NCBI RefSeq assembly: GCF_000009705.1
Contig: NC_003272.1
Location: 5,610,001 to 5,642,000 of the forward strand
DNA: 32,000 nucleotides
Source of the DNA: Nostoc sp. PCC 7120 = FACHB-418
GTDB lineage: Bacteria > Cyanobacteriota > Cyanobacteriia > Cyanobacteriales > Nostocaceae
Direction: 5' to 3'
Shown one piece after another: positions 8,848 to 25,453 of this stretch. Under the pieces are notes generated by a model. The model was not told where the DNA came from. It searched no databases and saw only the letters and a list, made by a program, of their open reading frames with translations. The position numbers and the translations under genes are program-made. The first letter of the stretch is position 1, and the number at the start of each line of letters is the position of its first letter.

Positions 8848-9546
8848 ATGTTTTTACTGTTAAGCCGGGTACTGCTGTGGTTACTGATTGGTACTATCGT
8901 ATACTCACTGTTCCAGCGATTTTATCCTTCCGGCACTTTTGCTGGCAGATTAGTCTTAGTGATTGTGTTGATAGTCATAGCTTTGTCGTTCATTAATCCC
9001 AACGAACCAGCTGTGGCATCTTTGTGGCGGTTAATATCCTTTCCACTTAAGCCTTTAGGAGCATCGGTTTTGATGATGATGTTTGCTGCCCAAAAAATCA
9101 AGGGTGGTGGCATCGATAAACCCGGAGGATATCTCGTAGGCTGGGCATTGACTATTTTGCTGTTTGCAAGTACGCCAGCGATCGCCTACTTCTTAATTAG
9201 AGCGCCATTGGCAACGGGCGCAATGATTCCCAGTTATCAACTCATGTCATCTGCCCCATCAGAAACATTGGTAGCATTGGCACAACCAGCCAACCAAACA
9301 CCAGTTTCCGATATCTTGGGGGACACTATTTTACCTAGCCCAGAACTAGGACGGGCAACCATAGCTTTCAACCCTTTAAATAGCCAAATTCCCCCCTATT
9401 TGTTGCAAAATCCTCAACAAATCCAGGAACGAGGGCTACGCCTGGAAGACTTTGTACCCAGTGCTGCAACACTGCAACTGACAACACAAGTCTGGGAAAG
9501 CTACCTCAATCAAGTTTACTTTTTCTTACGTGGTCGCCAGACATAA
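8848..9546 (+). CDS. hypothetical integral membrane protein
   Basis: 232 aa with ATG start. About four N-terminal hydrophobic helices are followed by a Pro/Gln-rich soluble tail. No family was recognised. Confidence 0.6.
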   Translation: MFLLLSRVLLWLLIGTIVYSLFQRFYPSGTFAGRLVLVIVLIVIALSFINPNEPAVASLWRLISFPLKPLGASVLMMMFAAQKIKGGGIDKPGGYLVGWALTILLFASTPAIAYFLIRAPLATGAMIPSYQLMSSAPSETLVALAQPANQTPVSDILGDTILPSPELGRATIAFNPLNSQIPPYLLQNPQQIQERGLRLEDFVPSAATLQLTTQVWESYLNQVYFFLRGRQT

Positions 9547-9759: not shown

Positions 9760-11511
9760 ATGACAAAATCTCGACGAATTACTAAACTTGCTGCTTATCT
9801 GCGTCCCCATTGGCGGGAAGCAGCATTGGGCATCCTGGCTTTGTTGTCTGTCAATGGGCTGGGTGTTTATATCCCTTGGTTAATTAGGGGTTGTGTTGAA
9901 CTACTTGCTACCAACTTTAGCTGGAATCAAATATTACGTTACGTAGTAATTATTATCTTGCTTAGTTCTGCCATGTTGCTCATCCGTATGGCTTCGCGGA
10001 TTTGGTTATTTGGAGTGGGTAGACAAGTAGAATTTGACCTTAAACAACGGATTTTTGAACATTTACTCAAGCTAGAACCAGCTTATTTTGCTACCAATAC
10101 AATTGGTGATTTAATTAGCAGAGCGACTAGTGATGTCGATAATGTCAGGCGCTTATTAGGTTTTGCGGTCTTAAGTTTGGCCAACACCCTATTTGCTTAC
10201 GTTCTTACCTTACCTGTCATGCTAAGAATTAGTGTCGATTTGACACTCGCAGCTTTGGCAGTCTATCCCTTTATGTTTGTTTTAGTTAATTTATTTAGCA
10301 ATCGTTTACGTCAAGAACAGGCAAAAGTACAAGAACAACTCTCTGACATTAGTGAGCTGATTCAAGAAGATATTAGTGGCATCGCTTTAATTAAAATTTA
10401 CGCCCAAGAAGAAAACGAGCGGCGCGCTTTTGCCCAACAAAATCAAAAGTTATTAGGGGTTAACTTGGAACTAGCCAAAAGTCGTAATATTCTGTTTCCT
10501 CTAATTGGGGGTTTAGCCAGTCTGAGTTCACTAATAGTTATTTGGTTGGGAACATCACGAATTGCGGAGGGAACCTTAGCTGTTGGCGATTTTTTGGCGC
10601 TTCTCATATACATAGAACGTCTAGTCTTTCCCACAGCGCTATTAGGTTTTACGATTTCTGCTTACCAACGGGGTGAGGTGAGTGTAGATCGTTTGGAAGC
10701 TATCCTCAGCGTAGAAGCTAAAATTCAAGATGCTGATGCAGCCATACATTTAGAATTAGGTGAGGTAAAAGGGGAATTAACCGCCAAGAATCTCAGTTAC
10801 ACTTATCCGGGTGTTGAAAACCCAGCTTTGAACAAAGTTAACTTTACTATTGCTCCTGGGGAAACTGTGGCGATTGTAGGAGCAATCGGTTCTGGTAAGT
10901 CTACCTTAGCTAATGCCTTGCCCAGATTGTTGGAAGTTGCTCCAGGACAATTGTTTTTAGATGGGCAGGATATTACTCAGATAGCTTTGGCCGATTTACG
11001 TAGTGCGATCGCTTATGTTCCTCAAGATAGCTTTTTATTTAGTACCACAATTAAAAATAATATCCGCTATAGCGATCCTGTCAGTCCCCCAGAAAATGTA
11101 GAGTATGTTGCTAAACTAGCTCAAATCCATCCCGAAATTATTAATTTTCCCCAACAGTATGAAACTATCGTGGGAGAACGTGGTATTACCCTTTCTGGCG
11201 GTCAAAGACAACGTACTGCACTAGCTAGAGCAATGTTAGTTAATGCTCCAGTCTTAATCTTGGATGATGCCCTCTCTAGTGTGGATAATCAAACAGCTAC
11301 ACAAATTCTCAATAATCTATCTAGTGGTACTGAACGTAAGACTGTAGTTTTTATCACTCATCAACTTTCGGCGGCGGCAGCAGCAGACCGGATTTTTGTC
11401 ATGGATAAAGGGCAAATTGTCCAGGTGGGTAATCACTTGGAACTCTTGCAGCAAGCAGGTCTTTACCGGAAATTGTGGAGCCAGCATCAGGTGGCAGAAT
11501 TACTAAGTTAG
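9760..11511 (+). CDS. ABC exporter half-transporter (fused permease plus ATPase, MsbA/MdlB type)
   Basis: 583 aa with six N-terminal TM helices. Walker A GAIGSGKST, Q-loop VPQDSFLF, signature LSGGQRQR, Walker B VLILDD (Asp where the catalytic Glu is usual), H-loop FITHQL. Confidence 0.9.
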   Translation: MTKSRRITKLAAYLRPHWREAALGILALLSVNGLGVYIPWLIRGCVELLATNFSWNQILRYVVIIILLSSAMLLIRMASRIWLFGVGRQVEFDLKQRIFEHLLKLEPAYFATNTIGDLISRATSDVDNVRRLLGFAVLSLANTLFAYVLTLPVMLRISVDLTLAALAVYPFMFVLVNLFSNRLRQEQAKVQEQLSDISELIQEDISGIALIKIYAQEENERRAFAQQNQKLLGVNLELAKSRNILFPLIGGLASLSSLIVIWLGTSRIAEGTLAVGDFLALLIYIERLVFPTALLGFTISAYQRGEVSVDRLEAILSVEAKIQDADAAIHLELGEVKGELTAKNLSYTYPGVENPALNKVNFTIAPGETVAIVGAIGSGKSTLANALPRLLEVAPGQLFLDGQDITQIALADLRSAIAYVPQDSFLFSTTIKNNIRYSDPVSPPENVEYVAKLAQIHPEIINFPQQYETIVGERGITLSGGQRQRTALARAMLVNAPVLILDDALSSVDNQTATQILNNLSSGTERKTVVFITHQLSAAAAADRIFVMDKGQIVQVGNHLELLQQAGLYRKLWSQHQVAELLS

Positions 11512-11595: not shown

Positions 11596-13002
11596 ATGTT
11601 AGAATTTATACATAATATTTTTGCAGATAATTTATTTATCCCCCACGGCCATTGCTACCTGTGGCAGCCTGGATTAGTTTGGTTACATTTACTTTCAGAT
11701 TTTCTCATCGCTGTTGCCTATTATTCCATCCCCATCACTCTGATTTATTTTGTGCGTAAGCGACAAGATTTGCCTTTTAAATGGATATTCCTACTATTTG
11801 GGGCGTTCATTATCTCTTGTGCTACGTCCCATGTGATGGAAATCTGGACACTTTGGCATCCAACCTATTGGTTGTCTGGTTTCATGAAGGCAATCACCGC
11901 TTTTATTTCTATATATACAGCCATTGTCCTTGTACCCATAGTTCCTCAATTATTAGCTTTACCTAGTCCCGCACAATTAGAAGCTGCTAACAACCAACTC
12001 AAAATCGAAATCATCGAGCGCAAAACAGCAGAAGCAGCTCTTTTACAAATTAAAGCAGACTTAGAAAATAGAGTTGAGGAACGCACCAATCAGTTACAGC
12101 AAAGTATGTTGGCATCTTTGGCTACAGCTGCTAAAGCTAAAGACCAGGCAGAAAAACTGCAAGTCGCTTTGAACGATTTGGCTAACGCTCAAGTCCAACT
12201 GATTCAAACAGAAAAAATGTCTTCTTTGGGTCAATTAGTTGCGGGTATTGCCCATGAAATTAATAACCCAGTTAATTTTATCTACGGTAATATTCATTTC
12301 ATCTATGAATATACCAAAGATTTGTGGCAACTAATTATTCTTTATCAGCAATGCTATCCTGAACCTGCTTGGGAAATTGCAGCTTATACACAAGAAATTG
12401 ATCTTGATTTTGTACAAAATGATTTTGCAAAAATTTTAGCCTCTATCAAGAATGGAGCCGAGCGCATTCGGGAAATAGTTTTATCTTTACGCAATTTTTC
12501 TCGCTTGGATGAAGCGGAAATTAAACAAGTAGATATTCATGAAGGTATTGATAATACAATATTGCTCCTAAAAAACCGCTTAAAAGGTCAGGGCAAACAT
12601 CCAGATATTGAAGTCGTTAGAGAATACAATAACTTACCTCTAGTCGAGTGCTATCCTGGGCAACTGAATCAAGTATTTATGAATATCCTGACCAATGCTA
12701 TTGAAGCAGCAAAGGAATCAGTGAACAATCCGCTAATTCGGATTCAGACTGAGGCTCTAGATAGCGATCAAGTGATGATTCAGATTTCTGATAACGGTTG
12801 TGGTATGACGGAGGAGATAAGAAATAAAATTTTTGATCCTTTCTTCACAACTAAACCTATTGGTTCAGGCACGGGTCTAGGGATGTCAATTAGCTATCAA
12901 ATTATAGATAAGCATGGTGGAACCCTAAAGTGTGTTTCTGCTCCCAATGAAGGGACTGAGTTTATCATTTACATCCCAACTCGCCTCAAGTCTTCTATAT
13001 AA
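11596..13002 (+). CDS. sensor histidine kinase with N-terminal ETR1-type ethylene-binding (Cu-dependent) transmembrane domain
   Basis: Residues about 30-120, LLSDFLIAVAYYSIPITLIYFVRKRQDLPFKWIFLLFGAFIISCATSHVMEIWTL, align closely with Arabidopsis ETR1 [54 protein letters not shown] as I recall it. This includes the Cys (11818-11820) and His (11830-11832) equivalent to ETR1 C65/H69. A coiled coil follows, then H-box AHEINNP, N-box NILTNAIEA, G1 DNGCGM and G2 GSGTGLGMS. Confidence 0.85.
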   Translation: MLEFIHNIFADNLFIPHGHCYLWQPGLVWLHLLSDFLIAVAYYSIPITLIYFVRKRQDLPFKWIFLLFGAFIISCATSHVMEIWTLWHPTYWLSGFMKAITAFISIYTAIVLVPIVPQLLALPSPAQLEAANNQLKIEIIERKTAEAALLQIKADLENRVEERTNQLQQSMLASLATAAKAKDQAEKLQVALNDLANAQVQLIQTEKMSSLGQLVAGIAHEINNPVNFIYGNIHFIYEYTKDLWQLIILYQQCYPEPAWEIAAYTQEIDLDFVQNDFAKILASIKNGAERIREIVLSLRNFSRLDEAEIKQVDIHEGIDNTILLLKNRLKGQGKHPDIEVVREYNNLPLVECYPGQLNQVFMNILTNAIEAAKESVNNPLIRIQTEALDSDQVMIQISDNGCGMTEEIRNKIFDPFFTTKPIGSGTGLGMSISYQIIDKHGGTLKCVSAPNEGTEFIIYIPTRLKSSI

Positions 13003-13137: not shown

Positions 13138-13788
13138 ATGTTAACTACATCCATACCTACTGCTGTCAGAAAGTTACAGCATCGTCACCTGGGAGCGATC
13201 GCAGCTTTAATACTAATTAGTTTATTAAGCTCTGTAAGTGGATTATCTCTGCATCATCAAATAACTAATGGCTGGGATGGTTTTTTATGGGGTGTGGCTG
13301 ATCCGGTGCTGCACCTCGACAGTTTAGCAAGGATCTTAGGCATTGGCTTAATCTCAACAGGCATTGTTCATGGTTCATTCATCACCATGTCTTTTGTCTT
13401 AGCATCCATACTGGGCATACTTACACATTTATCGACGTTCCATTTACCAGGTGCAGAAATAGCGATCGCCATTTTTACTATTGGCTTTGGTGCTATGTTA
13501 GTCATGCCCTATCGACCTAACTGGCTGGTTGTAGTGATCTTGGGAGCGATCGCTGGTTTGTTGCAAGGCTACGTTTCTGGACAAGCTATCAACGGGATTG
13601 ATATCATCTCCCTGCTTACCTATACTTTAGGCTTCGGTTTAACTCAGTATGCAATCGCCACTAGCACCAGACGACTAGTTAGCGATAGTCTATCCACCAT
13701 TGTTCGTTTTGTAGGTTTTGCTTTTATAGCGATCGGTTTTGTATTTTGCGGTAACTTCATCAATTTTTTAGGGGCTGGTAATTTTTAA
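13138..13788 (+). CDS. HupE/UreJ-like membrane protein (putative metal transporter) with an atypical signature
   Basis: Polytopic, about 216 aa from ATG 13138; the track's 13093 start is a TTG. GFLWGVADPVLHLDSLARILGIGL corresponds to the HupE/UreJ motif GFxHPxxGxDHLLAML, but the canonical His residues are shifted or replaced. Confidence 0.6.
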   Translation: MLTTSIPTAVRKLQHRHLGAIAALILISLLSSVSGLSLHHQITNGWDGFLWGVADPVLHLDSLARILGIGLISTGIVHGSFITMSFVLASILGILTHLSTFHLPGAEIAIAIFTIGFGAMLVMPYRPNWLVVVILGAIAGLLQGYVSGQAINGIDIISLLTYTLGFGLTQYAIATSTRRLVSDSLSTIVRFVGFAFIAIGFVFCGNFINFLGAGNF

Positions 13789-14028
13789 CATATCTCACGG
13801 GGTGCAATCTTCGCGCCCCTACTAGTCCATCGAATCGTCATTTCCAACTATTAATATTAAAGTTTAGAGAAATTGGATTATATGTAACCTGTACTCTGTT
13901 AAGATTCACCATTGGGGTATTCGCTATCAGTCTTGGCGCTACTGCCCATCCCGCCCCTCAAACCTTTGTCCGTCCGCCTAAGACTGATACCGCTACTGGT
14001 GACAGGCCGATGTTATATCTGGAGTTCT

Positions 14029-15309
14029 ATGTCTTTTTCTCATCTCGGCTTGTCCAATGAAATTATCAATGCTGTTACTGAGTTGGGGTACACCAAACCC
14101 ACACCCATCCAGATGCAGTCTATTCCTGCTGTCTTATCAGGACGAGATTTGCTAGCTGGCGCTCAAACTGGAACTGGGAAAACTGCCAGCTTTACTCTCC
14201 CCCTCCTACATTTATTATCCCAAGATAGTCTTAAAAGCGCCTCCAATGCTTCCTCACCCATTCGGGCGCTAATTCTTACCCCGACTCGTGAACTCGCCGC
14301 ACAGGTGGAGTCAAGCGTGCGTGACTACGGCAAGTACTTGAAGCTGAACTCAATGGTGATGTTTGGTGGAGTCAGCATTAATCCCCAAAAACAGCGTTTA
14401 AAGGGTCGTGTAGATATTCTGGTTGCTACCCCAGGGCGACTGCTAGACCATGTGCAGCAGGGAACGGTAAACCTTTCACAGATTGAGATTCTGGTGCTGG
14501 ATGAAGCCGACCGGATGTTGGATATGGGCTTTATTCGTGATATCCGTCGTATCCTCTCCCTGTTGCCCAAACAGCGACAAAACTTGCTATTCTTCGCTAC
14601 ATTCTCAGACAAAATCAAGGAACTCGCCGCCGGTCTACTGAATCGCCCGCAGATGATCGAAGTAGCACGCCGTAACGTTACAGCCGATACTGTGACACAA
14701 AAAGTCTACAAAATAGAGCGCGATAGAAAACGAGATTTACTGGCTCACCTGATTCGGAAAGATAATTGGTATCAAGTACTAGTATTTACTCGTACCAAGT
14801 ATGGTGCTGACCGTCTAGTTAAACAATTAGGCCATGAGCGCATTCAAGCTCTAGCTATCCACGGTAATAAGAGCCAGTCGGCGCGTACCCACGCTCTGGC
14901 AAAGTTCAAAAATGGTAGTTTACAAGTTTTAGTAGCAACTGACATTGCTGCACGAGGACTGGACATCAGCGAATTGCCTTATGTGGTCAATTTCGATTTG
15001 CCCTATGTACCAGAAGATTATGTTCATCGTATTGGTCGCACTGGTCGCGCTGGTGCATCAGGTGAGGCTGTATCGCTGGTGAGCGCCGATGAATATCATT
15101 TGTTGGCAGATATTGAAAAACTGATTGAAAAGCGATTGCCTTTTGAATTGGTAGCGGGTATTGGAGCTAATTCCCAAGCTAAACCCGAACCAACTCAGGA
15201 TGAACGCAAGCAAAAACCCAAAGATAGTCAGCATCAGCCTCGCTCTGCTGCTCAAGGTGTGCCAAAGAAATCAGGGAAAAAACGTTTAACTAATTCTGGA
15301 AAAAGGTAA
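14029..15309 (+). CDS. DEAD-box ATP-dependent RNA helicase (RhlE/CrhR-like) with a basic C-terminal tail
   Basis: Q-motif GYTKPTPIQ, motif I AQTGTGKT, Ia [30 protein letters not shown] at 14021-14024 precedes ATG 14029 (MSFSHLGLS...). The track's TTG start at 13912 adds a non-helicase 39-aa extension. Confidence 0.92.
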
Positions 15310-17338: not shown

Positions 17339-17989
17339 TTAGTGAAAATTAGCATTGTGTCGTACCAAATTCATAAACTCTTCACGAGTACGAGCATCTT
17401 CCGCAAATACACCACGCATTGCACTAGTAACAGTCCAAGAACCAGGCTTTTGTACACCGCGCATCACCATGCACATATGAGTTGCTTCTATTACCACTGC
17501 TACCCCTTGAGGTTTGAGTAAACCTTGCAGTGCATCAGCAATTTGTAGTGTCAGACGTTCCTGTACTTGTAAACGTCGAGCATACATCTCACAAACTCGC
17601 GCAATTTTAGATAACCCTATCACCTTACCGTTAGGAATATAGGCAACATGAGCGCGACCAATAATTGGTAAAATATGATGTTCGCAAGAACTGAAAATGT
17701 CGATATCCCGAATCAATACCATCTCATTGGCATCTTCTGTAAATACTGCACCATTTAACAGTTCATCCAAGGATTCATTATATCCCTTAGTCAAAAACTG
17801 CAAAGCTTTTACAACTCGCTTAGGAGTATCTAGCAAACCTTCACGGTCAGGATTTTCCCCTAATCCAATTAGTAAAGTACGCACAGCCTGTACCATTTCT
17901 GCTTCTGTGACAGTTGGTGTTTGCTGAGTAGATAAAGATGACACCATCTGAGCAGCAGAAACTGTATCGGGACGAATCGATAAAGTCAT
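17339..17989 (-). CDS. folE: GTP cyclohydrolase I, type IA (FolE)
   Basis: 216 aa. The SSCEHHILP and [11 protein letters not shown] motifs (the Zn-ligand Cys/His/Cys of FolE-IA) and QERLTxQIA are present. Confidence 0.92.
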
Positions 17990-18087
17990 GTTATTTCGTT
18001 TAGTTGGTAGAGATTGTGAGTTAGTTAATAGTTAGAGATTGGCAAAAATCTATTAACTGAATTGTTTGATTACTTAACACTTCTTAA

Positions 18088-19149
18088 TCATACCAAACAA
18101 TTGTTAAGTTGTGTATAAATTTGATTAGTATTTAATTTTCTACCAATGAAAACCAATTGGTTCTTAGGTAAAGTATGCCATTCATCAGCGTGTAAGTTAT
18201 AACGAGGCCCACTCAGTTGAAATATATGGCGTAACTCACTATCACTAAACCACAAAATACCCTTAGCACGGAAAACATTCTGAGGCATTTCTTCTGTGAG
18301 AAAATTCTCAAATTTATGAACATCAAACGGCCTATCAGACTGAAAAGATACTGAAACAAATCCATCATTGTCTAAATGATGAGAGTGGTGTTCATGATGA
18401 TGTTTATGCTCATGATGGTCATGGTCATGGTCGTGTTCATGGCTATGATGTTCATGATTATGTTCGTGAGCATCTTCTGCATCATCAGCAGTATAATCAT
18501 CTTTTGGGGTTAAACCAACACCTAAAATTAAGGGTAAAGCCACTTCACCATATTTTGTATGTAGGATTCTTGCACTATCTTTGACAGTTTGGATATAGTC
18601 TTCTAATGCTTGAATTTTTTCTGAAGTAGCCAAGTCTGTTTTATTCAGAAGAATAATGTCTGCATAAGTAAGTTGTTTTAAAGCAGCTTCACTCTCGAAA
18701 TGATTTGGTTCAAAGGCTTCCGCATCTACGACTGTCAGGATTGAGTCGAGATTGGTCAAATCCCGAAGCTCTGTACCTAAAAACGTTAAAATAATGGGCA
18801 ATGGGTCAGCAACACCGGTAGTTTCAATAACTAAATAATCGATGCGTTCTTCTCGTTCCAAAACCCGATAAACAGCATCAACTAAACCATCATTGATAGT
18901 GCAGCATATACAGCCATTACTCAGTTCGAGCATATCTTGGTCTACAGACACTAACAACTGGCTATCAATATTAATATCACCGAACTCATTGACGAGAACA
19001 GCAACTTTTAAATCATGCTTATTTTTAAGAATTTGATTGAGTAGAGTTGTTTTACCACTGCCTAAAAAGCCAGTAATGATTGTAACTGGCATTCCTCGTT
19101 TGGGAATTTCAGGAATTATGTTTGTTGTTTCTGCGGTTAGGGTATTCAT
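18088..19149 (-). CDS. COG0523/CobW-family G3E GTPase metallochaperone with a His-rich insert
   Basis: P-loop GFLGSGKTT, CxCC motif GCICCT, NKTD. The His-rich stretch HEHNHEHHSHEHDHDHDHHEHKHHHEHHSHH is encoded at about 18376-18468. A CobW C-terminal domain follows. Confidence 0.92.
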   Translation of the reverse strand: MNTLTAETTNIIPEIPKRGMPVTIITGFLGSGKTTLLNQILKNKHDLKVAVLVNEFGDINIDSQLLVSVDQDMLELSNGCICCTINDGLVDAVYRVLEREERIDYLVIETTGVADPLPIILTFLGTELRDLTNLDSILTVVDAEAFEPNHFESEAALKQLTYADIILLNKTDLATSEKIQALEDYIQTVKDSARILHTKYGEVALPLILGVGLTPKDDYTADDAEDAHEHNHEHHSHEHDHDHDHHEHKHHHEHHSHHLDNDGFVSVSFQSDRPFDVHKFENFLTEEMPQNVFRAKGILWFSDSELRHIFQLSGPRYNLHADEWHTLPKNQLVFIGRKLNTNQIYTQLNNCLV

Positions 19150-19259
19150 AGGGTGATGAGATGTTTGTGAACTATGAAATCAATGACGCTGTTGAATAAT
19201 TGTGGCTATGTACGTATATTCAACTTCAGCAATCTGCTTAAGGATTTTGTATTTGTAAA

Positions 19260-21098
19260 TTACTTCTTGGCAATTATAGTTTCTCGTAAGTGATTTGTCA
19301 GATCATTTAAATTAATCGCTCCCAAATCACCATTTGCTCTAGTTCTTACACTTAAATTTTGATTTTCCACTTCTTTTTTACCTACGACACCAACCACGGG
19401 AATCTTTTCTAACTCTGCTGTACGAATCTGCTTTCCTAAACGCTCGCCACTGATATCTATTTCGACTCTAAATCCATCTTTTTGCAAAGCTATGGCAACA
19501 GATTCTGTATATCCTCTCACATCGTCGCTCACAGGTAATAATCTTATCTGTACTGGTGCTAACCATAAAGGAAAATCACCTGCATAATTCTCAATTAAGA
19601 TGCCGAAAAATCGTTCCAAAGAACCAAAAATCGCGCGATGAATCATAATTGGTCTTTGGCGACTACCATCAGTAGCAATATATTCCATATCGAAACGTTC
19701 AGGTAAATTAAAATCTACCTGAATAGTGGAACATTGCCAGAGACGACCAATAGCATCTTGAATTTTGATATCAATTTTAGGGCCATAAAAAGCACCACCA
19801 CCTTCATCAACAATATAATTCCAGCCTTTAGCATCCAAGGCTTGTCTTAAGGCTGATGTGGCTAGTTCCCAAACTTCATTATTTCCTACTGATTTATCGG
19901 GACGGGTTGAAAGATTAACCTCATAATTTTTAAAACCAAAATCTGACAAAATATGTTCAGTGAGATTTAAAACTCCTAAAATTTCATCAGCGATTTGATG
20001 AGGTAAACAAAAAATATGAGCATCATCTTGGGTAAATCCTCTGACCCTCATCAAACCATGTAGCGCCCCTGAACGTTCATAACGATAAACAGTGCCTAAT
20101 TCAGCCCATCTTAAGGGTAATTCTCGATAAGAATGTAATTGATGTTTATAAGTGAGGACATGAAAGGGACAATTCATAGGCTTAATTTGATAAGCCTGAT
20201 TTTCCACTTCCATTGAGTCAAACATATTCTCTTGATAGAAGTCAAAATGACCAGATGTCTTCCATAAATCGAGGTTGGCTACATGAGGTGTGTAGAGTAA
20301 TTGATAGCCAGATTCTAGATGACATTTTCGCCAATAATCTTCAATGATGTAACGAATACTCGCGCCTTTGGGATGCCAAAAAACTAAACCACCGCCAGCT
20401 TCCTCTTGAATACTAAATAAGTTTAGCTCTTGACCCAACTTTCTATGGTCGCGGCGTAAAGCTTCTTCTCTTTGTTTGAGGTAAGCCTCTAGTTCTGCCT
20501 TTGTTTTCCAAGCTGTGCCATAAATGCGTTGTAGTTGGGGCTTGCTTTCATCGCCTTGCCAATATGCACCGGCAATGTTTAATAGTTGGAAACTATTGGG
20601 GTCAATTTCACCAGTAAAATTAATATGCGGCCCAGCGCACAAGTCCCACCAATAGTTACTGGCTGGTTTGACATCTGCAACAAACAAGGAAGATTCTGGT
20701 GTGCTGGTGTCAGGGCTACCAATAAAGTAGCGGGTGATGGTTTCTTCTGGGGGGATACGGTCTAAGATTTCTAACTTGTAAGGTTCGTTTAACTGAGCGA
20801 TTTCGGTGCGGATTTCTTCTCGTTGCACCTCTTCGCGGATTATTGGCAGGTTGGCTTTGATGATGCGCCGCATTTCTGCTGCAATTTTGCCCAAGTCATC
20901 GGGAGTGATGCTGATTGGACAATCGAAGTCGTAGTAAAATCCGTTGTCTGTCACTGGGCCAGTTGCTACTTTTGTCCCTAGAAATAACTTCTGTACTGCC
21001 ATCGCCATGATGTGGGCGCAGGTGTGACGAATCCGCACAAGTTGCTCGCTGTTGTGCTGGTCTAAGTCTCTCTGGGACTGGGTTAAGGAACTGACCAT
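19260..21098 (-). CDS. thrS: threonine--tRNA ligase (paralog embedded in a zinc-responsive-looking operon)
   Basis: 612 aa. Editing-domain motifs HTCAHIMA and WWDLCAGPH are present. Class II core has MNCPFH, QDDAHIFC and HRAIFGSLERF (the Zn-ligand Cys/His/His positions are retained). An anticodon-binding domain is at the C-terminus. No N-terminal TGS domain is present. Confidence 0.93.
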   Translation of the reverse strand: MVSSLTQSQRDLDQHNSEQLVRIRHTCAHIMAMAVQKLFLGTKVATGPVTDNGFYYDFDCPISITPDDLGKIAAEMRRIIKANLPIIREEVQREEIRTEIAQLNEPYKLEILDRIPPEETITRYFIGSPDTSTPESSLFVADVKPASNYWWDLCAGPHINFTGEIDPNSFQLLNIAGAYWQGDESKPQLQRIYGTAWKTKAELEAYLKQREEALRRDHRKLGQELNLFSIQEEAGGGLVFWHPKGASIRYIIEDYWRKCHLESGYQLLYTPHVANLDLWKTSGHFDFYQENMFDSMEVENQAYQIKPMNCPFHVLTYKHQLHSYRELPLRWAELGTVYRYERSGALHGLMRVRGFTQDDAHIFCLPHQIADEILGVLNLTEHILSDFGFKNYEVNLSTRPDKSVGNNEVWELATSALRQALDAKGWNYIVDEGGGAFYGPKIDIKIQDAIGRLWQCSTIQVDFNLPERFDMEYIATDGSRQRPIMIHRAIFGSLERFFGILIENYAGDFPLWLAPVQIRLLPVSDDVRGYTESVAIALQKDGFRVEIDISGERLGKQIRTAELEKIPVVGVVGKKEVENQNLSVRTRANGDLGAINLNDLTNHLRETIIAKK

Positions 21099-21110
21099 AT
21101 TAATAAATAA

Positions 21111-21125
21111 TGAGAATCGTTATCA
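21111..21125. promoter_or_regulatory. Zur/Fur-type 7-1-7 box immediately upstream of thrS
   Basis: TGAGAATCGTTATCA matches TGATAAT-N-ATTATCA at 12 of 14 positions and lies 13 nt upstream of the thrS ATG (21098). Confidence 0.55.
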
Positions 21126-21209
21126 TGTTAGCGCAAAAAGGGGCGGATTGGGAATGACTATAAAAACGTCAAAGTTATGATTTCTTTGACCCCTACACCC
21201 CCTCAACTT

Positions 21210-22442
21210 TCAGCTGGCTTGTACTCCGGTGATGCTGGGGGAAAAAGCTATGCTTGGTTTAGCTATGGCAGGGACGATTTTTTCACAGGCCATTCTTGCG
21301 CCTGATAAGTTGCGTGCTGTTGGCCCTACTTGTAAAGCTGCCAAACCGCCCATGATAAATAATTCGCAGCCAGGCCAACGTAGACAAGTATCTAAAACTG
21401 GTAAACCTTTAACTATGGGAATAGGGTAAGCGACGAGAACATCTTTTAATAAGGGTTCATGGGTGACATCGAATTTAGTACCTGTGGAAAGCCAAATATA
21501 ATCGCATTCATGGTGACTACCATCACTACATTCGACTTGCCAATTTTTGCCGAGCCATTGGGCTTTGAGTATTTGACAGTTTTCGTCAATTTTGATGTTA
21601 CCACTACGGACTTGTCGTCTTATTTGGGTAGCGATCGCCGGAGTCATGGAACCACCATTTCTAGCTTGCTGAATCGTCGTCCAGCGTTGTTCCCAATCAG
21701 ATTGAGCAAAAAAGTCTTTGAGATACTTTGGCCCCAACCATCCTGGTTCTGCATCGAATAACTTTTCTGTTAACTGTCGCCGCATCATTAACTGAACCTT
21801 CGCACCGTGAGAAATCGCACCCACAGCCAAATGTCCGCTAGTTAACCCACCACCCACAATCAAAATTCTCTTCCCCATTAACGACAATTTTCGTAAATCA
21901 ATGGTTTGTGAGTGGCAAATTCTCTCTTGTGGGTATGGTGTCTGAATCTCGTTTACCCAAGTCGGGATTTGACGTTGAGCGCTACCAGTAGCCAACACTA
22001 CCCGTCTTGCTGTTACCTTCTGCCCATCTTGTAAACTAAGGCAAAATTGGGGACGCAGATGATGAGGAATGGGTTCAATTTTGGTAACGGCTAAAGGAAT
22101 GACTCGCTCTTGTAACTGCCAAACTCGAACCACATCTTGGCAAAAATCCTCGAATAATTGTGTCCCTGGTAAATCATAGGGGGGAAATAACTCATGAGGA
22201 CGAGATTCAGCGAATTTCCGTAAAGCAAAGGGGTTGGGGTCTGGATGATGAACTGCGGGCGATCGCAAATGGGGAATTTCCAAAGCTGCAAATTGCTGAT
22301 TCCAGCCACTCATCCATCTACCACTGGGGTCAAATACCAGAAATTTCCCCCTCAGAGACTGCCGTTTTTGCAGTAGATGGGTAGTCAAAGTTAGAGCATG
22401 AGGCCCTGCGCCAACAATAGCTAAGTCGGTTTTTTTGGTCAT
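21210..22442 (-). CDS. FAD/NAD(P)-binding oxidoreductase, lysine/ornithine N-monooxygenase-like (SidA/IucD fold class), function unknown
   Basis: 410 aa. N-terminal dinucleotide motif DLAIVGAGPHALT and a second motif ILIVGGGLTSGHLA. The overall two-Rossmann layout resembles class B flavin monooxygenases. Call is by eye. Confidence 0.7.
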   Translation of the reverse strand: MTKKTDLAIVGAGPHALTLTTHLLQKRQSLRGKFLVFDPSGRWMSGWNQQFAALEIPHLRSPAVHHPDPNPFALRKFAESRPHELFPPYDLPGTQLFEDFCQDVVRVWQLQERVIPLAVTKIEPIPHHLRPQFCLSLQDGQKVTARRVVLATGSAQRQIPTWVNEIQTPYPQERICHSQTIDLRKLSLMGKRILIVGGGLTSGHLAVGAISHGAKVQLMMRRQLTEKLFDAEPGWLGPKYLKDFFAQSDWEQRWTTIQQARNGGSMTPAIATQIRRQVRSGNIKIDENCQILKAQWLGKNWQVECSDGSHHECDYIWLSTGTKFDVTHEPLLKDVLVAYPIPIVKGLPVLDTCLRWPGCELFIMGGLAALQVGPTARNLSGARMACEKIVPAIAKPSIAFSPSITGVQAS

Positions 22443-22443
22443 T

Positions 22444-22471
22444 TTGTTAGTTGTCAGTTGTCAGTTGTTAT
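22444..22471. repeat. 7-nt tandem repeat TTGTCAG-like, 4 units
   Basis: TTGTTAG TTGTCAG TTGTCAG TTGTTAT, in the 59-nt spacer between hemB and the flavoprotein gene. Confidence 0.75.
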
Positions 22472-22501
22472 TTGCCCCCCTTGCCCCTCTGCCCTCCACG
22501 T

Positions 22502-23518
<1,017 letters not shown>

Positions 23519-23624: not shown

Positions 23625-24740
23625 TTATGCTAAAGGCAAACAAAAGCGGAACGTGCTGCCAATACCTAGTTCACTATCTAGATGAATTTCGCCACTTTGT
23701 AGTTCTACTAGGTGTTTAGTGATAGTTAAGCCAATACCTGTGCCACCGGAGTGGCGATCGCGCGATTGATCAGCTCGCCAAAAACGCTCAAATACATGGG
23801 GTATATCCTCGGAAGCAATACCAATACCTGTATCAATCACAGCAATCCAGAGTTGCCTGTTTTCTGTCCATGTACGGATAGTAATTGAACCTGTTGTAGT
23901 ATAACGGATGGCGTTACCTAGCAAGTTGACTAATATTTGTTCTGTGCGATCGATATCTGCTAATACAAGAGGCATTTGGGGTGTCAATTCCGCAAGTAAT
24001 ACTGGGCCATCCTCTAACAATTGATCGCTAAATCTTTCAACTAAAGACTCTAATAAAGGATATAAATTGACAGACTGTATTCTAATAGGTAAATAACCAG
24101 CTTCTGCCTTCGATAATTCTTGTAAATCGTTGACTAATCGTTCTAAACGTCTAGTTTCTTTCGCCAAGCGCCGATAAACCTCTGGGGATGGTTCAATTTC
24201 ACCATCGGCAAGTTCTTCTAAATAACCACGCACAACTGTTAACGGTGTGCGTAGTTCATGAGTCATATCACCTATCAGTTCCCGCCGTCGTGCTTCCACC
24301 CCTTCCAAACTGGCAGCCATGCGGTTAAAACTCGTACCCAAGCGATTGAGTTCGGGGATGTCAGACAAAGGTAGCCGCGCTTGTAGATGACCAGCAGCAA
24401 ACTGTTGAGTTATTTGTTCCATCTCAGTTAATCGCTGCATAATCCTTTTAGAAACCCAGTAACTCAAGCCTCCCGCAGCCGTGCTACCGACTAAGACTGA
24501 CCAAATAGTGCTGCTGCGCCAAGCTATCTCAAACCCTTGGACTAAATCTGCACGAACATTAATTAAATTCACCCCTTCACTTTCCAATCTTTCTAAGTGC
24601 AGGACAAAAAAGCGGGGCGACGAAACTTTACTAATAATGACAAGACTAATTAATCCCACTATCATCACCACTAAGTGGGAGACAAACAAGCGGGATGCTA
24701 AAGGTAGGGATTTTGTCCAACGCCAACCTTTTTTAATCAT
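23625..24740 (-). CDS. two-component sensor histidine kinase (2 TM, HAMP, HisKA, HATPase_c)
   Basis: 371 aa. H-box MTHELRTPLT, N-box LLGNAIRYT, G1 DTGIGI, G2 GGTGIGLTI. The extracytoplasmic loop between the two TM helices is short. Confidence 0.9.
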   Translation of the reverse strand: MIKKGWRWTKSLPLASRLFVSHLVVMIVGLISLVIISKVSSPRFFVLHLERLESEGVNLINVRADLVQGFEIAWRSSTIWSVLVGSTAAGGLSYWVSKRIMQRLTEMEQITQQFAAGHLQARLPLSDIPELNRLGTSFNRMAASLEGVEARRRELIGDMTHELRTPLTVVRGYLEELADGEIEPSPEVYRRLAKETRRLERLVNDLQELSKAEAGYLPIRIQSVNLYPLLESLVERFSDQLLEDGPVLLAELTPQMPLVLADIDRTEQILVNLLGNAIRYTTTGSITIRTWTENRQLWIAVIDTGIGIASEDIPHVFERFWRADQSRDRHSGGTGIGLTITKHLVELQSGEIHLDSELGIGSTFRFCLPLA

Positions 24741-25453
24741 GCGGAAATTACAGGAGAGTCTTCAAATTTATAGCCAACTCCGACAACAGTTTTAATAAAA
24801 CTGGGATTGGTGGGATCAGGTTCAATTTTTTTCCTGAGCCTAGCTACATGAGTATCTACAACACGCTCATCACCAAAAAAATTATCTCCCCACAATTTGT
24901 CAATTAGTTGGGTACGGTTCCACACTCGCCCAGGATTGCTGACAAAAGTGCTTAATAAATTAAATTCTAAAGTGGTTAAATCTAAAGCTTCTGGTTGATG
25001 GGAATCTATTTGACGACTGGCAGTTCGTTGGTCTAAATCTACTATAAAGTGTTGAGTCCGATTTACCTGATTTTGTCCCCCTTGACGTAAGCTGCGCCGT
25101 AGAAGCGCCCTGACACGCGCCACCAACTCTCTAGGGCTGAAGGGTTTAACCATATAGTCATCAGCACCCGTAGACAAGCCGATTACCCGGTCTATTTCCT
25201 CACCTTTAGCTGTGAGCATTAGTATATAAGGGTCTTTTGCCCCAGGTTTCTGGCGAATTCTCGCGCAAACTTCCAACCCATCCAGCCCAGGAATCATCAG
25301 GTCTAGGATGATTAAATCTGGTGGTCGTTCGTGAAACATTTGTAGAGCATTGATCCCATCGCGGCTAGTCCGACAGGAAAAGCCCTCTTTTTCTAAAGAA
25401 TGTTGAATTAACTGAGCAATTTCTGATTCATCCTCAACAATTAGAATGTCCAT
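24737..25453 (-). CDS. OmpR/PhoB-family response regulator
   Basis: 238 aa. Receiver domain (DLIILDLMIPGLDG, MLTAKG, KPF) plus a winged-helix C-terminus. Its stop overlaps the kinase start (ATGA at 24737-24740), implying translational coupling. Confidence 0.92.
   Translation of the reverse strand: MDILIVEDESEIAQLIQHSLEKEGFSCRTSRDGINALQMFHERPPDLIILDLMIPGLDGLEVCARIRQKPGAKDPYILMLTAKGEEIDRVIGLSTGADDYMVKPFSPRELVARVRALLRRSLRQGGQNQVNRTQHFIVDLDQRTASRQIDSHQPEALDLTTLEFNLLSTFVSNPGRVWNRTQLIDKLWGDNFFGDERVVDTHVARLRKKIEPDPTNPSFIKTVVGVGYKFEDSPVISA

Follow-up and report, generated by a model that had tools for sequence, protein, structure and literature searches.

A predicted ETR1-type ethylene-binding domain joined by a helical linker to a histidine kinase core in Nostoc sp. 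PCC 7120

A 32,000-nucleotide stretch of the genome of Nostoc (Anabaena) sp. PCC 7120 (assembly GCF_000009705.1, contig NC_003272.1, positions 5,610,001 to 5,642,000; referred to below as the window, with positions counted from its first letter) contains a gene for a histidine kinase whose N-terminus resembles that of the plant ethylene receptor ETR1. The locus raises the question whether a plant-type ethylene-binding domain (EBD) is wired here straight to a kinase, and how such a kinase would pass on its signal. The gene product is probably a homodimeric, membrane-anchored sensor kinase with an ETR1-type EBD as its sole input, in which ethylene sensing by way of Cu(I) would be relayed along a helix to the phospho-acceptor His220 and from there to a regulator encoded at an unlinked site.

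Domain layout and putative ethylene-binding residues

The open reading frame (ORF) opens with an ATG codon and encodes 468 aa; its boundaries agree with those of a preceding sequence-only reading, and the start is backed by Met1, which is nearly invariant in an alignment of 42 cyanobacterial orthologues (A2). Three Pfam families were matched: (i) ETR1_N (PF25487, 'Ethylene receptor 1-like, N-terminal domain') spanning profile positions 2–97 of 97 (148 bits with a gathering threshold of 27; E=1e-43), (ii) HisKA from residue 211 (E=7.5e-9), and (iii) HATPase_c at residues 356–462 (E=3.7e-26). The sequence-only reading had proposed a histidine kinase with a plant-type ethylene-binding domain, which is borne out by these matches, and had described the protein as free of an intervening PAS/GAF module. 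The latter also holds, since PAS, GAF and HAMP gave no Pfam match in the 468-aa protein even at E≤1, and only helices are found between the sensor and the dimerization and histidine phosphotransfer (DHp) domain in an AlphaFold2 (AF2) model. This model represents a monomer and was built on the 42-sequence alignment (mean predicted local distance difference test score 70.8). Among NCBIfam models, the C-terminal 340 residues group with NtrB/AtoS-like kinases, missing all equivalog cutoffs, and sequence matches in the PDB, among them CckA and ZraS, are restricted to the kinase core.

The N-terminus shows three hydropathy peaks, and the AF2 model places helices at residues 25–55, 62–87 and 91–112. 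With a mean column conservation of 0.83 among the 42 orthologues, the EBD is the best-conserved region of the protein. As ETR1 reference served P0121, a plant database entry annotated as 'ethylene receptor' which is 98 % identical to the N-terminus of Arabidopsis ETR1. BLASTP of the first 130 residues against P0121 aligned 95 residues, 42 % of them identical (E=4e-24), with query residue 33 paired to ETR1 residue 23 and the resulting offset of +10 kept without gaps through helices 1 and 2. Counted by hand, 27 of the first 54 aligned residues are identical; the 50–60 % over about 55 residues estimated previously by eye is fair, at its low end (50 %).

The Cys-x3-His pair, which the sequence-only reading had put at the positions of ETR1 C65/H69, indeed aligns there, C75 (codon at nt 11818–11820) with C65 and H79 (codon at nt 11830–11832) with H69. 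Together with D35, Y42, I45, P46 and I72, both residues occupy invariant columns of a MAFFT alignment (A1) of the window protein with two angiosperm receptors, a liverwort and a charophyte sequence, GeiEtr1 and GeiEtr2, and the same seven positions are invariant in all 42 orthologues. Their ETR1 counterparts Y32, I35, P36 and I62 are said to stand on the list of seven ethylene-binding residues given by Wang et al. in 2006. That seven residues are needed for ethylene binding is confirmed in number, without the full list (e.g., PMC11819568). In ETR1, C65 and H69 coordinate Cu and D25 has a role in high-affinity binding (PMC10266040); the D25N exchange is given in PMC11971883 as cutting the affinity 100-fold. 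Since the corresponding residue D35 is Asp rather than Asn (Asp in 42/42 orthologues), high-affinity binding with slow release of ethylene is predicted for the window protein.

The loop between transmembrane (TM) helices 1 and 2 (RKRQDLPFK) has a basic character, in agreement with the N-out/C-in topology of ETR1. Ahead of TM1 lies the motif F-I-P-H-G-H-C-Y-L-W, in which F14, P16, H17, G18, C20, L22 and W23 are invariant among the 42 orthologues. It falls outside the Pfam model (which begins at residue 27), is lacking in plant receptors, and should, by prediction, lie on the periplasmic or lumenal side. The pre-TM1 region holds one invariant Cys (C20), to be compared with the C4/C6 pair of the plant type. 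Cyanobacterial receptors have been described as carrying one Cys in this region, which may take over the task of that pair in the disulfide-linked dimer (PMC6682694). A disulfide of the dimer or an extracytoplasmic metal-capture site is conceivable, C20 and the surrounding motif being possible candidates for either.

The conserved residues, putatively metal-binding, could also be read in another, considerably less probable way, namely as a Cu(I)-based sensor of copper, of redox state or H2O2 at the Cys/His site, or of some other Cu-binding ligand, ethylene binding then being incidental. The invariant His-Gly-His-Cys ahead of TM1 would suit such a sensor; moreover, the N-terminus of ETR1 was implicated in H2O2 signalling via reactive Cys residues (PMC3546692), and the purpose of ethylene binding in cyanobacteria was for a long time in question (PMC4479046). 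However, all seven presumed ethylene-binding positions are invariant and not the Cu ligands alone, and EBD-dependent responses to ethylene are on record for Synechocystis and Azospirillum, as are ethylene responses for Geitlerinema.

Table 1. Features of the EBD kinase gene and of its direct neighbours (window positions)
Feature	Position	Strand	Basis and remarks
EBD histidine kinase, complete gene	11596..13002	+	ORF call; 468 aa; probably alr4716
Pre-TM1 motif F14-I-P-H-G-H-C20-Y-L-W23	11635..11664	+	Residues 14–23; conservation in 42 orthologues
ETR1_N ethylene-binding domain, 3 TM helices	11674..11961	+	Residues 27–122; Pfam PF25487, hydropathy, AF2 helices
Helix-1 residues D35, Y42, I45, P46 (= ETR1 D25, Y32, I35, P36)	11698..11733	+	Alignments
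Helix-2 residues I72, C75, H79 (= ETR1 I62, C65, H69)	11809..11832	+	Alignments; C75/H79 predicted Cu(I) ligands
All-helical linker	11968..12210	+	Residues 125–205; AF2 helices; S-helix-like segment with RVEERT (159–164)
DHp domain (HisKA), H-box A-H220-E-I-N-N-P (nt 12253–12270)	12211..12510	+	Residues 206–305; Pfam HisKA, motif, helices 181–253 and 270–305
Catalytic ATP-binding domain (HATPase_c)	12511..12981	+	Residues 306–462; Pfam, PDB core matches, motifs
fraI (septal nanopore formation protein)	8848..9546	+	232 aa; NCBIfam NF052600 equivalog, 372 bits against cutoff 225
ATP-binding cassette (ABC) exporter, fused permease/ATPase, MsbA/SmdA-like	9760..11511	+	Pfam ABC_membrane and ABC_tran
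HupE/UreJ-family metal permease	13138..13788	+	216 aa; Pfam PF04955, E=2e-16

Helical linker, kinase core and signal output

In the AF2 model, the EBD is followed by a hinge around the invariant L-P-S-P-A-Q-L and by two long helices (residues 125–174 and 181–253), the second of which contains His220; a small helical insert, the helix 270–305 and the alpha/beta catalytic domain (residues 310–461) complete the chain. No globular part is modelled between the EBD and the DHp domain, residues 125–305 being helical only, and neither Pro nor Gly occurs between residues 126 and 211. The motif RVEERT within the linker is typical of signalling helices. The sequence-only reading had placed a coiled coil at about 11970–12200; the continuous helix agrees with the model and with the lack of Pro and Gly, whereas the coiled coil, while plausible, found no backing in a simple test for heptad periodicity, the values of which were not above those of shuffled sequences in most windows tested. 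For this reason the segment is termed all-helical here and not a proven coiled coil.

The linker is at the same time the least conserved region of the protein (0.53), with a gap fraction of about 0.46 at residues 141–180 of the 42-orthologue alignment. Within this kinase type the distance from the Cys of the EBD to the H-box takes the discrete values of 92, 120 or 145 residues. The window protein has the long form (145), and many orthologues of 422–437 aa are without about 53 linker residues (92 vs 145), so that the 'simplest possible' ethylene-to-kinase wiring claimed for it could not be upheld. The steps of 28 and 25 residues between the linker forms may be informative with respect to helical register in signal transmission.

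All boxes of the kinase core are intact in the window protein: the H-box, the N box NILTNAIEA (363–371), the G1 box DNGCGM (399–404), the F box FDPFF (413–417) and the G2 box GTGLGM (425–430). Together with the homologous cores in the PDB, they speak for a competent kinase.

On this basis, the proposed mechanism would run as follows. The three TM helices would hold a Cu(I) ion, with C75 and H79 of helix 2 as ligands and D35 of helix 1 assisting, and ethylene would bind to this Cu. A resulting shift of the helices would pass through the conserved LPSPAQLEA hinge and the linker, which is of the S-helix type and continuous in the model, into the DHp domain, where autophosphorylation of His220 by the intact catalytic domain would be altered; the phosphoryl group would then pass to a response regulator whose gene lies at another site of the genome. 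If plants and SynEtr1 of Synechocystis are taken as guides, ethylene would most likely lower the kinase output.

Several observations weigh against this mechanism. A report on binding, Cu or phosphorylation for the window protein, or for any EBD kinase wired directly, was not found in the literature, and ethylene is a putative natural ligand in Anabaena. When only the EBD was used as query, nothing was retrieved by sequence from the PDB, even at E≤10, the confidence of the monomer model is only moderate, and the outcome of the heptad test does not speak for a coiled coil as transmitting element. No response regulator gene, as a candidate for the partner, is located within about 10 kb on either side of the kinase gene. 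Furthermore, the phospho-acceptor His is conserved in 38 of the 42 orthologues and replaced by Tyr in the other four (P0053, P0063, P0078 and P0111). Because of these four, the output within the orthologue group may not be strictly tied to His phosphotransfer.

The last two points lead to a further alternative of rather low probability, in which the kinase signals mainly without canonical phosphotransfer, by protein contacts or by joining other kinases or EBD paralogues in hetero-oligomers, in the manner of plant receptors. The missing linked regulator would be accounted for by such signalling, and no regulator is found beside any of the 14 syntenic orthologues described below, either. One of the proteins with Tyr in place of His (P0063) is the syntenic orthologue of Nostoc sp. 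NIES-3756, G1-box substitutions are present in the orthologue group as well (D399N in 7/42, G403E in 6/42), and EBD genes number two or three in several genomes. Plant receptors form higher-order complexes, and conformational signalling between receptors was proposed (PMC10266040). Against this alternative, the window protein itself retains His220 and every catalytic box, as do the large majority of orthologues with regard to the His. Orphan kinases are, moreover, commonplace in Anabaena. As an aside, the His-to-Tyr and G1-box variants resemble the kinase-dead subfamily-2 receptors of plants.

Very improbable is the notion that a domain fusion has left behind, in this gene, a relic that is decaying or without function. 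Signs of decay do occur among the orthologues, since the product of locus L066 is truncated (331 aa) and that of L030 has degenerate kinase motifs, its G boxes being affected; L036 is a further locus listed among the kinase variants. In PCC 7120, by contrast, the ORF is intact, the identical 468-aa protein is present in at least 24 contigs, close relatives are 93–94 % identical, and the region with the invariant binding residues, the EBD, is better conserved than any other. A functional sensor kinase responding to ethylene remains the favoured interpretation.

Distribution of the layout and studied relatives

That direct wiring of an EBD to a kinase would be unusual, as the sequence-only reading implied, could not be upheld. 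At least 100 protein clusters have precomputed Pfam annotations of ETR1_N, HisKA and HATPase_c only (lengths of 423–517 aa), originating from Nostoc, Anabaena, Calothrix, Tolypothrix, Fortiea, Gloeotrichia, Microcoleus and others, and relatives with an inserted PAS domain form a minority among the top matches of the protein search. Public precomputed annotation already assigns PF25487 to the exact protein of the window. When one genome per species was scanned with a pattern, 417 EBD-encoding stretches were revealed, 80 of which were retrieved as loci, yielding 72 parsed proteins. About 45 of these 72 are complete, comprise no more than 520 aa and are wired directly to the kinase: 22 share the type of the window kinase (including a truncated one), 14 represent a second HisKA type and 9 a HisKA_3 type, with Pfam applied to one representative per kinase class and the others assigned by length and phmmer pattern. 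The remaining proteins are long and contain PAS, GAF, GGDEF, REC or Hpt domains.

The HisKA_3 class (ETR1_N, HisKA_3 and HATPase_c, about 411 aa) differs with respect to its genetic context. At these loci (L015, L028, L039, L043, L047, L048, L049, L063 and L067; also L023 and L026), the kinase gene is followed throughout by a gene for a NarL/GerE-type response regulator and by one for a single-domain receiver, such a locus representing a putative complete minimal two-component operon for ethylene. The product of L015 (Nostoc sp. 106C), for example, shares with the window protein the direct connection of the EBD to the kinase by a helical linker as well as the absence of PAS and GAF, but has a NarX/DegS-like HisKA_3 kinase with regulator and receiver genes, whereas the HisKA kinase of the window is without such partners nearby. 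Two short paralogues (435 aa) of the window's kinase type, at L020 and L025, are preceded by a REC-GGDEF gene about 270 nt upstream (ORFs 2193–3257 and 3160–4224, respectively), which hints at the synthesis of cyclic di-GMP as a possible output of this kinase type.

The layout has also been anticipated in the literature. ETR1-like proteins of Anabaena were stated to 'lack the GAF domain ... or the receiver domain' (PMC4479046), the outputs of bacterial EBD proteins were characterized as ranging 'from simple to complex' (PMC7700396), and 1,221 EBD sequences have been compared (PMC10266040); according to reviews, such sensors occur in large numbers among filamentous cyanobacteria. The earlier description of the Anabaena homologues is cited here from secondary sources. 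In view of these reviews and of the existing Pfam annotation, the window gene is an ordinary member of a known family, and its common layout counts as known already at the level of prediction.

Among studied proteins, the nearest relative is GeiEtr1 of Geitlerinema sp. PCC 7105, an EBD-GAF-kinase protein and putative ethylene receptor (Allen et al. 2019, PMC6682694). Its sequence, like that of GeiEtr2, was derived from a machine-read paper supplement with a few visible errors, one of which, in the HGHCYLW stretch, was corrected by eye in both GeiEtr1 inputs. Two blocks can be aligned: (i) window residues 1–152 are 52 % identical, with the PHGHCYLW lead-in and all seven binding residues shared, and (ii) window residues 140–461 correspond to GeiEtr1 residues 298–623 with 45 % identity over 336 residues, spanning linker and kinase. 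Both kinases belong to the same subfamily (H-box AHExNNP, long DHp insert, F box FDPFFTTKP), and both lack a receiver domain. In GeiEtr1, a GAF domain of about 145 residues is positioned between two helical linker segments, exactly at the join of the alignment, whereas the window protein has no GAF domain and, by this comparison, would in effect correspond to GeiEtr1 minus GAF. Ethylene responses are documented for Geitlerinema as the host of GeiEtr1, whereas a role in ethylene sensing is putative for the window protein. The genes grouped with GeiEtr1 likewise include no response regulator (PMC6682694).

SynEtr1/UirS (slr1212) of Synechocystis sp. PCC 6803, compared here by its description, also carries an N-terminal three-helix EBD on a histidine kinase, and ethylene binding as well as physiological effects are established for it. 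It differs from the window protein in having a PAS domain and a bilin-binding GAF domain (cyanobacteriochrome), which render it a bifunctional sensor of light and ethylene, and in having the regulators slr1213 and slr1214 in its pathway, whereas no regulators are linked to the window kinase. In Synechocystis the genes slr1213 and slr1214 reportedly adjoin slr1212. Ethylene lowers the transcripts of CsiR1 and slr1214, which are raised by phosphorylated slr1213 (PMC6682694).

AzoEtr1 of Azospirillum brasilense (Carlew et al. 2025, PMC11819568) resembles the window protein in combining an EBD and a histidine kinase without a receiver; it has kept the seven binding residues, and saturable binding of ethylene is on record for its first 130 residues. 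Unlike the window protein, it is proteobacterial, has a PAS domain between EBD and kinase, and is encoded directly upstream of a regulator gene.

Ethylene binding was confirmed for receptors of Arabidopsis, tomato and Synechocystis (PMC10266040). Arabidopsis ETR1 and ERS1 share with the window protein the EBD fold, the key residues and a histidine kinase output with conserved His, and ERS1 also lacks a receiver domain. Plant receptors, in contrast to the window protein, possess a GAF domain after the EBD (plant homologues carry PF01590) and two N-terminal Cys residues for the disulfide-linked dimer, and their signalling, via CTR1 and EIN2, largely does not depend on His-kinase activity. The window protein has one N-terminal Cys, no GAF domain and, unlike ETR1/ERS1, a kinase of the NtrB/AtoS-like subfamily.

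As a discovery, the locus is of little weight, given that the literature has listed cyanobacterial proteins with an ETR1-type EBD from about 2002 onwards and that a Pfam family exists. None of the studied bacterial receptors (SynEtr1, GeiEtr1/2 and AzoEtr1), however, has its sensor wired straight to the kinase. Because only a helical linker separates the putative Cu/ethylene site from the phospho-acceptor His, the 468-aa protein of the genetically tractable Anabaena PCC 7120 could serve as a convenient minimal model for the conversion of ethylene binding into a change of kinase state, and would also suit attempts at the still-missing experimental structure of an EBD. The three linker lengths and the natural His-to-Tyr variants provide ready-made comparisons. 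Two modest leads emerge, these natural kinase-dead orthologues and the conserved gene block in which the kinase gene resides.

Gene neighbourhood and other genes of the window

In the window, the gene order is fraI, ABC exporter, EBD kinase, HupE/UreJ permease, DEAD-box helicase and sugar transferase. FraI of PCC 7120 has 232 aa and is encoded by alr4714 (PMC12421839), and by consecutive numbering the EBD kinase gene, two genes further on, is probably alr4716; searchable literature contains no mention of this tag. The ABC exporter gene, the product of which stayed below the cutoffs of all NCBIfam models matched, ends 84 nt before the kinase start, and the gene for the permease begins 135 nt after the kinase stop. 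A scan for promoters and terminators found sites to be no commoner than in shuffled sequences, with none in the two intergenic gaps, and an Rfam scan of the window detected nothing, so that upstream of the HupE gene, too, neither a cobalamin riboswitch nor one of another kind was found. The Pfam match of the permease is moderate and no NCBIfam model was matched. At the site of the His-rich TM1 signature of the family, this permease reads A-D-P-V-L-H-L-D-S, because of which its metal specificity may differ.

The order fraI, ABC exporter and EBD kinase is kept in 14 further Nostocales loci (L005, L006, L008, L009, L012, L014, L018, L019, L030, L034, L035, L036, L045 and L066), with hupE following directly in 12 of them. 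The recurrent proximity of a metal permease fits the sensing of copper or redox state considered above; however, the linkage is confined to one orthologue group, and neither it nor the gene block occurs in Microcoleus or in other EBD classes. For the same reason, HupE as dedicated supplier of the cofactor for EBDs in general was rejected. The orthologues in Microcoleus lie in an unrelated gene context, also without a regulator gene. A paper on FraI (PMC11351039) was found to make no mention of the linkage between fraI and the EBD kinase.

That no response regulator is encoded next to the kinase, as had been stated beforehand, is corroborated beyond the window, as none of the 14 syntenic loci has an ORF with a receiver domain within 4.5 kb; this trait is hence conserved across the orthologue group. 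The sole response regulator of the window (24737–25453, minus strand) is of the OmpR type, and its gene overlaps the start of that for a HAMP-HisKA-HATPase kinase (23625–24740, minus strand). Both form a self-contained two-component pair (23625–25453), and a partnership with the EBD kinase is unlikely.

One may speculate, with little expectation of being right, that fraI, the ABC exporter, the EBD kinase and the HupE/UreJ permease constitute a module specific to Nostocales, in which the permease would supply the metal of the sensor and ethylene would control septal nanopores, cell-cell communication or hormogonia. Output without canonical phosphotransfer would be possible in such a module, because some of the positional orthologues have lost the phospho-acceptor His. 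If true, this would tie a plant hormone directly to the multicellular behaviour of symbiosis-competent cyanobacteria and would represent a bacterial parallel to the kinase-dead subfamily-2 receptors of plants.

The DEAD-box RNA helicase gene between hupE and the sugar transferase gene (13912–15309, plus strand) is, by its position, presumably crhC (alr4718). Nostoc sp. PCC 7524 and NIES-3756 have no helicase gene at the position downstream of hupE, which looks like a local insertion or loss. On the minus strand, positions 17339–23512 encode a GTP cyclohydrolase I, a CobW/COG0523 GTPase, a threonyl-tRNA synthetase, a flavin oxidoreductase and a delta-aminolevulinate dehydratase, an assemblage resembling the zinc-starvation (Zur-regulated) paralogue cluster of Anabaena PCC 7120. 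Upstream of fraI, a gene at 5559–6830 (plus strand) encodes a 423-aa fusion of a DsbD_2 membrane domain (cytochrome c biogenesis type) with a ferric-reductase-like TM domain; its end is overlapped by an ORF of 228 aa without a Pfam family, and Nostoc sp. PCC 7524 contains this pair as well.

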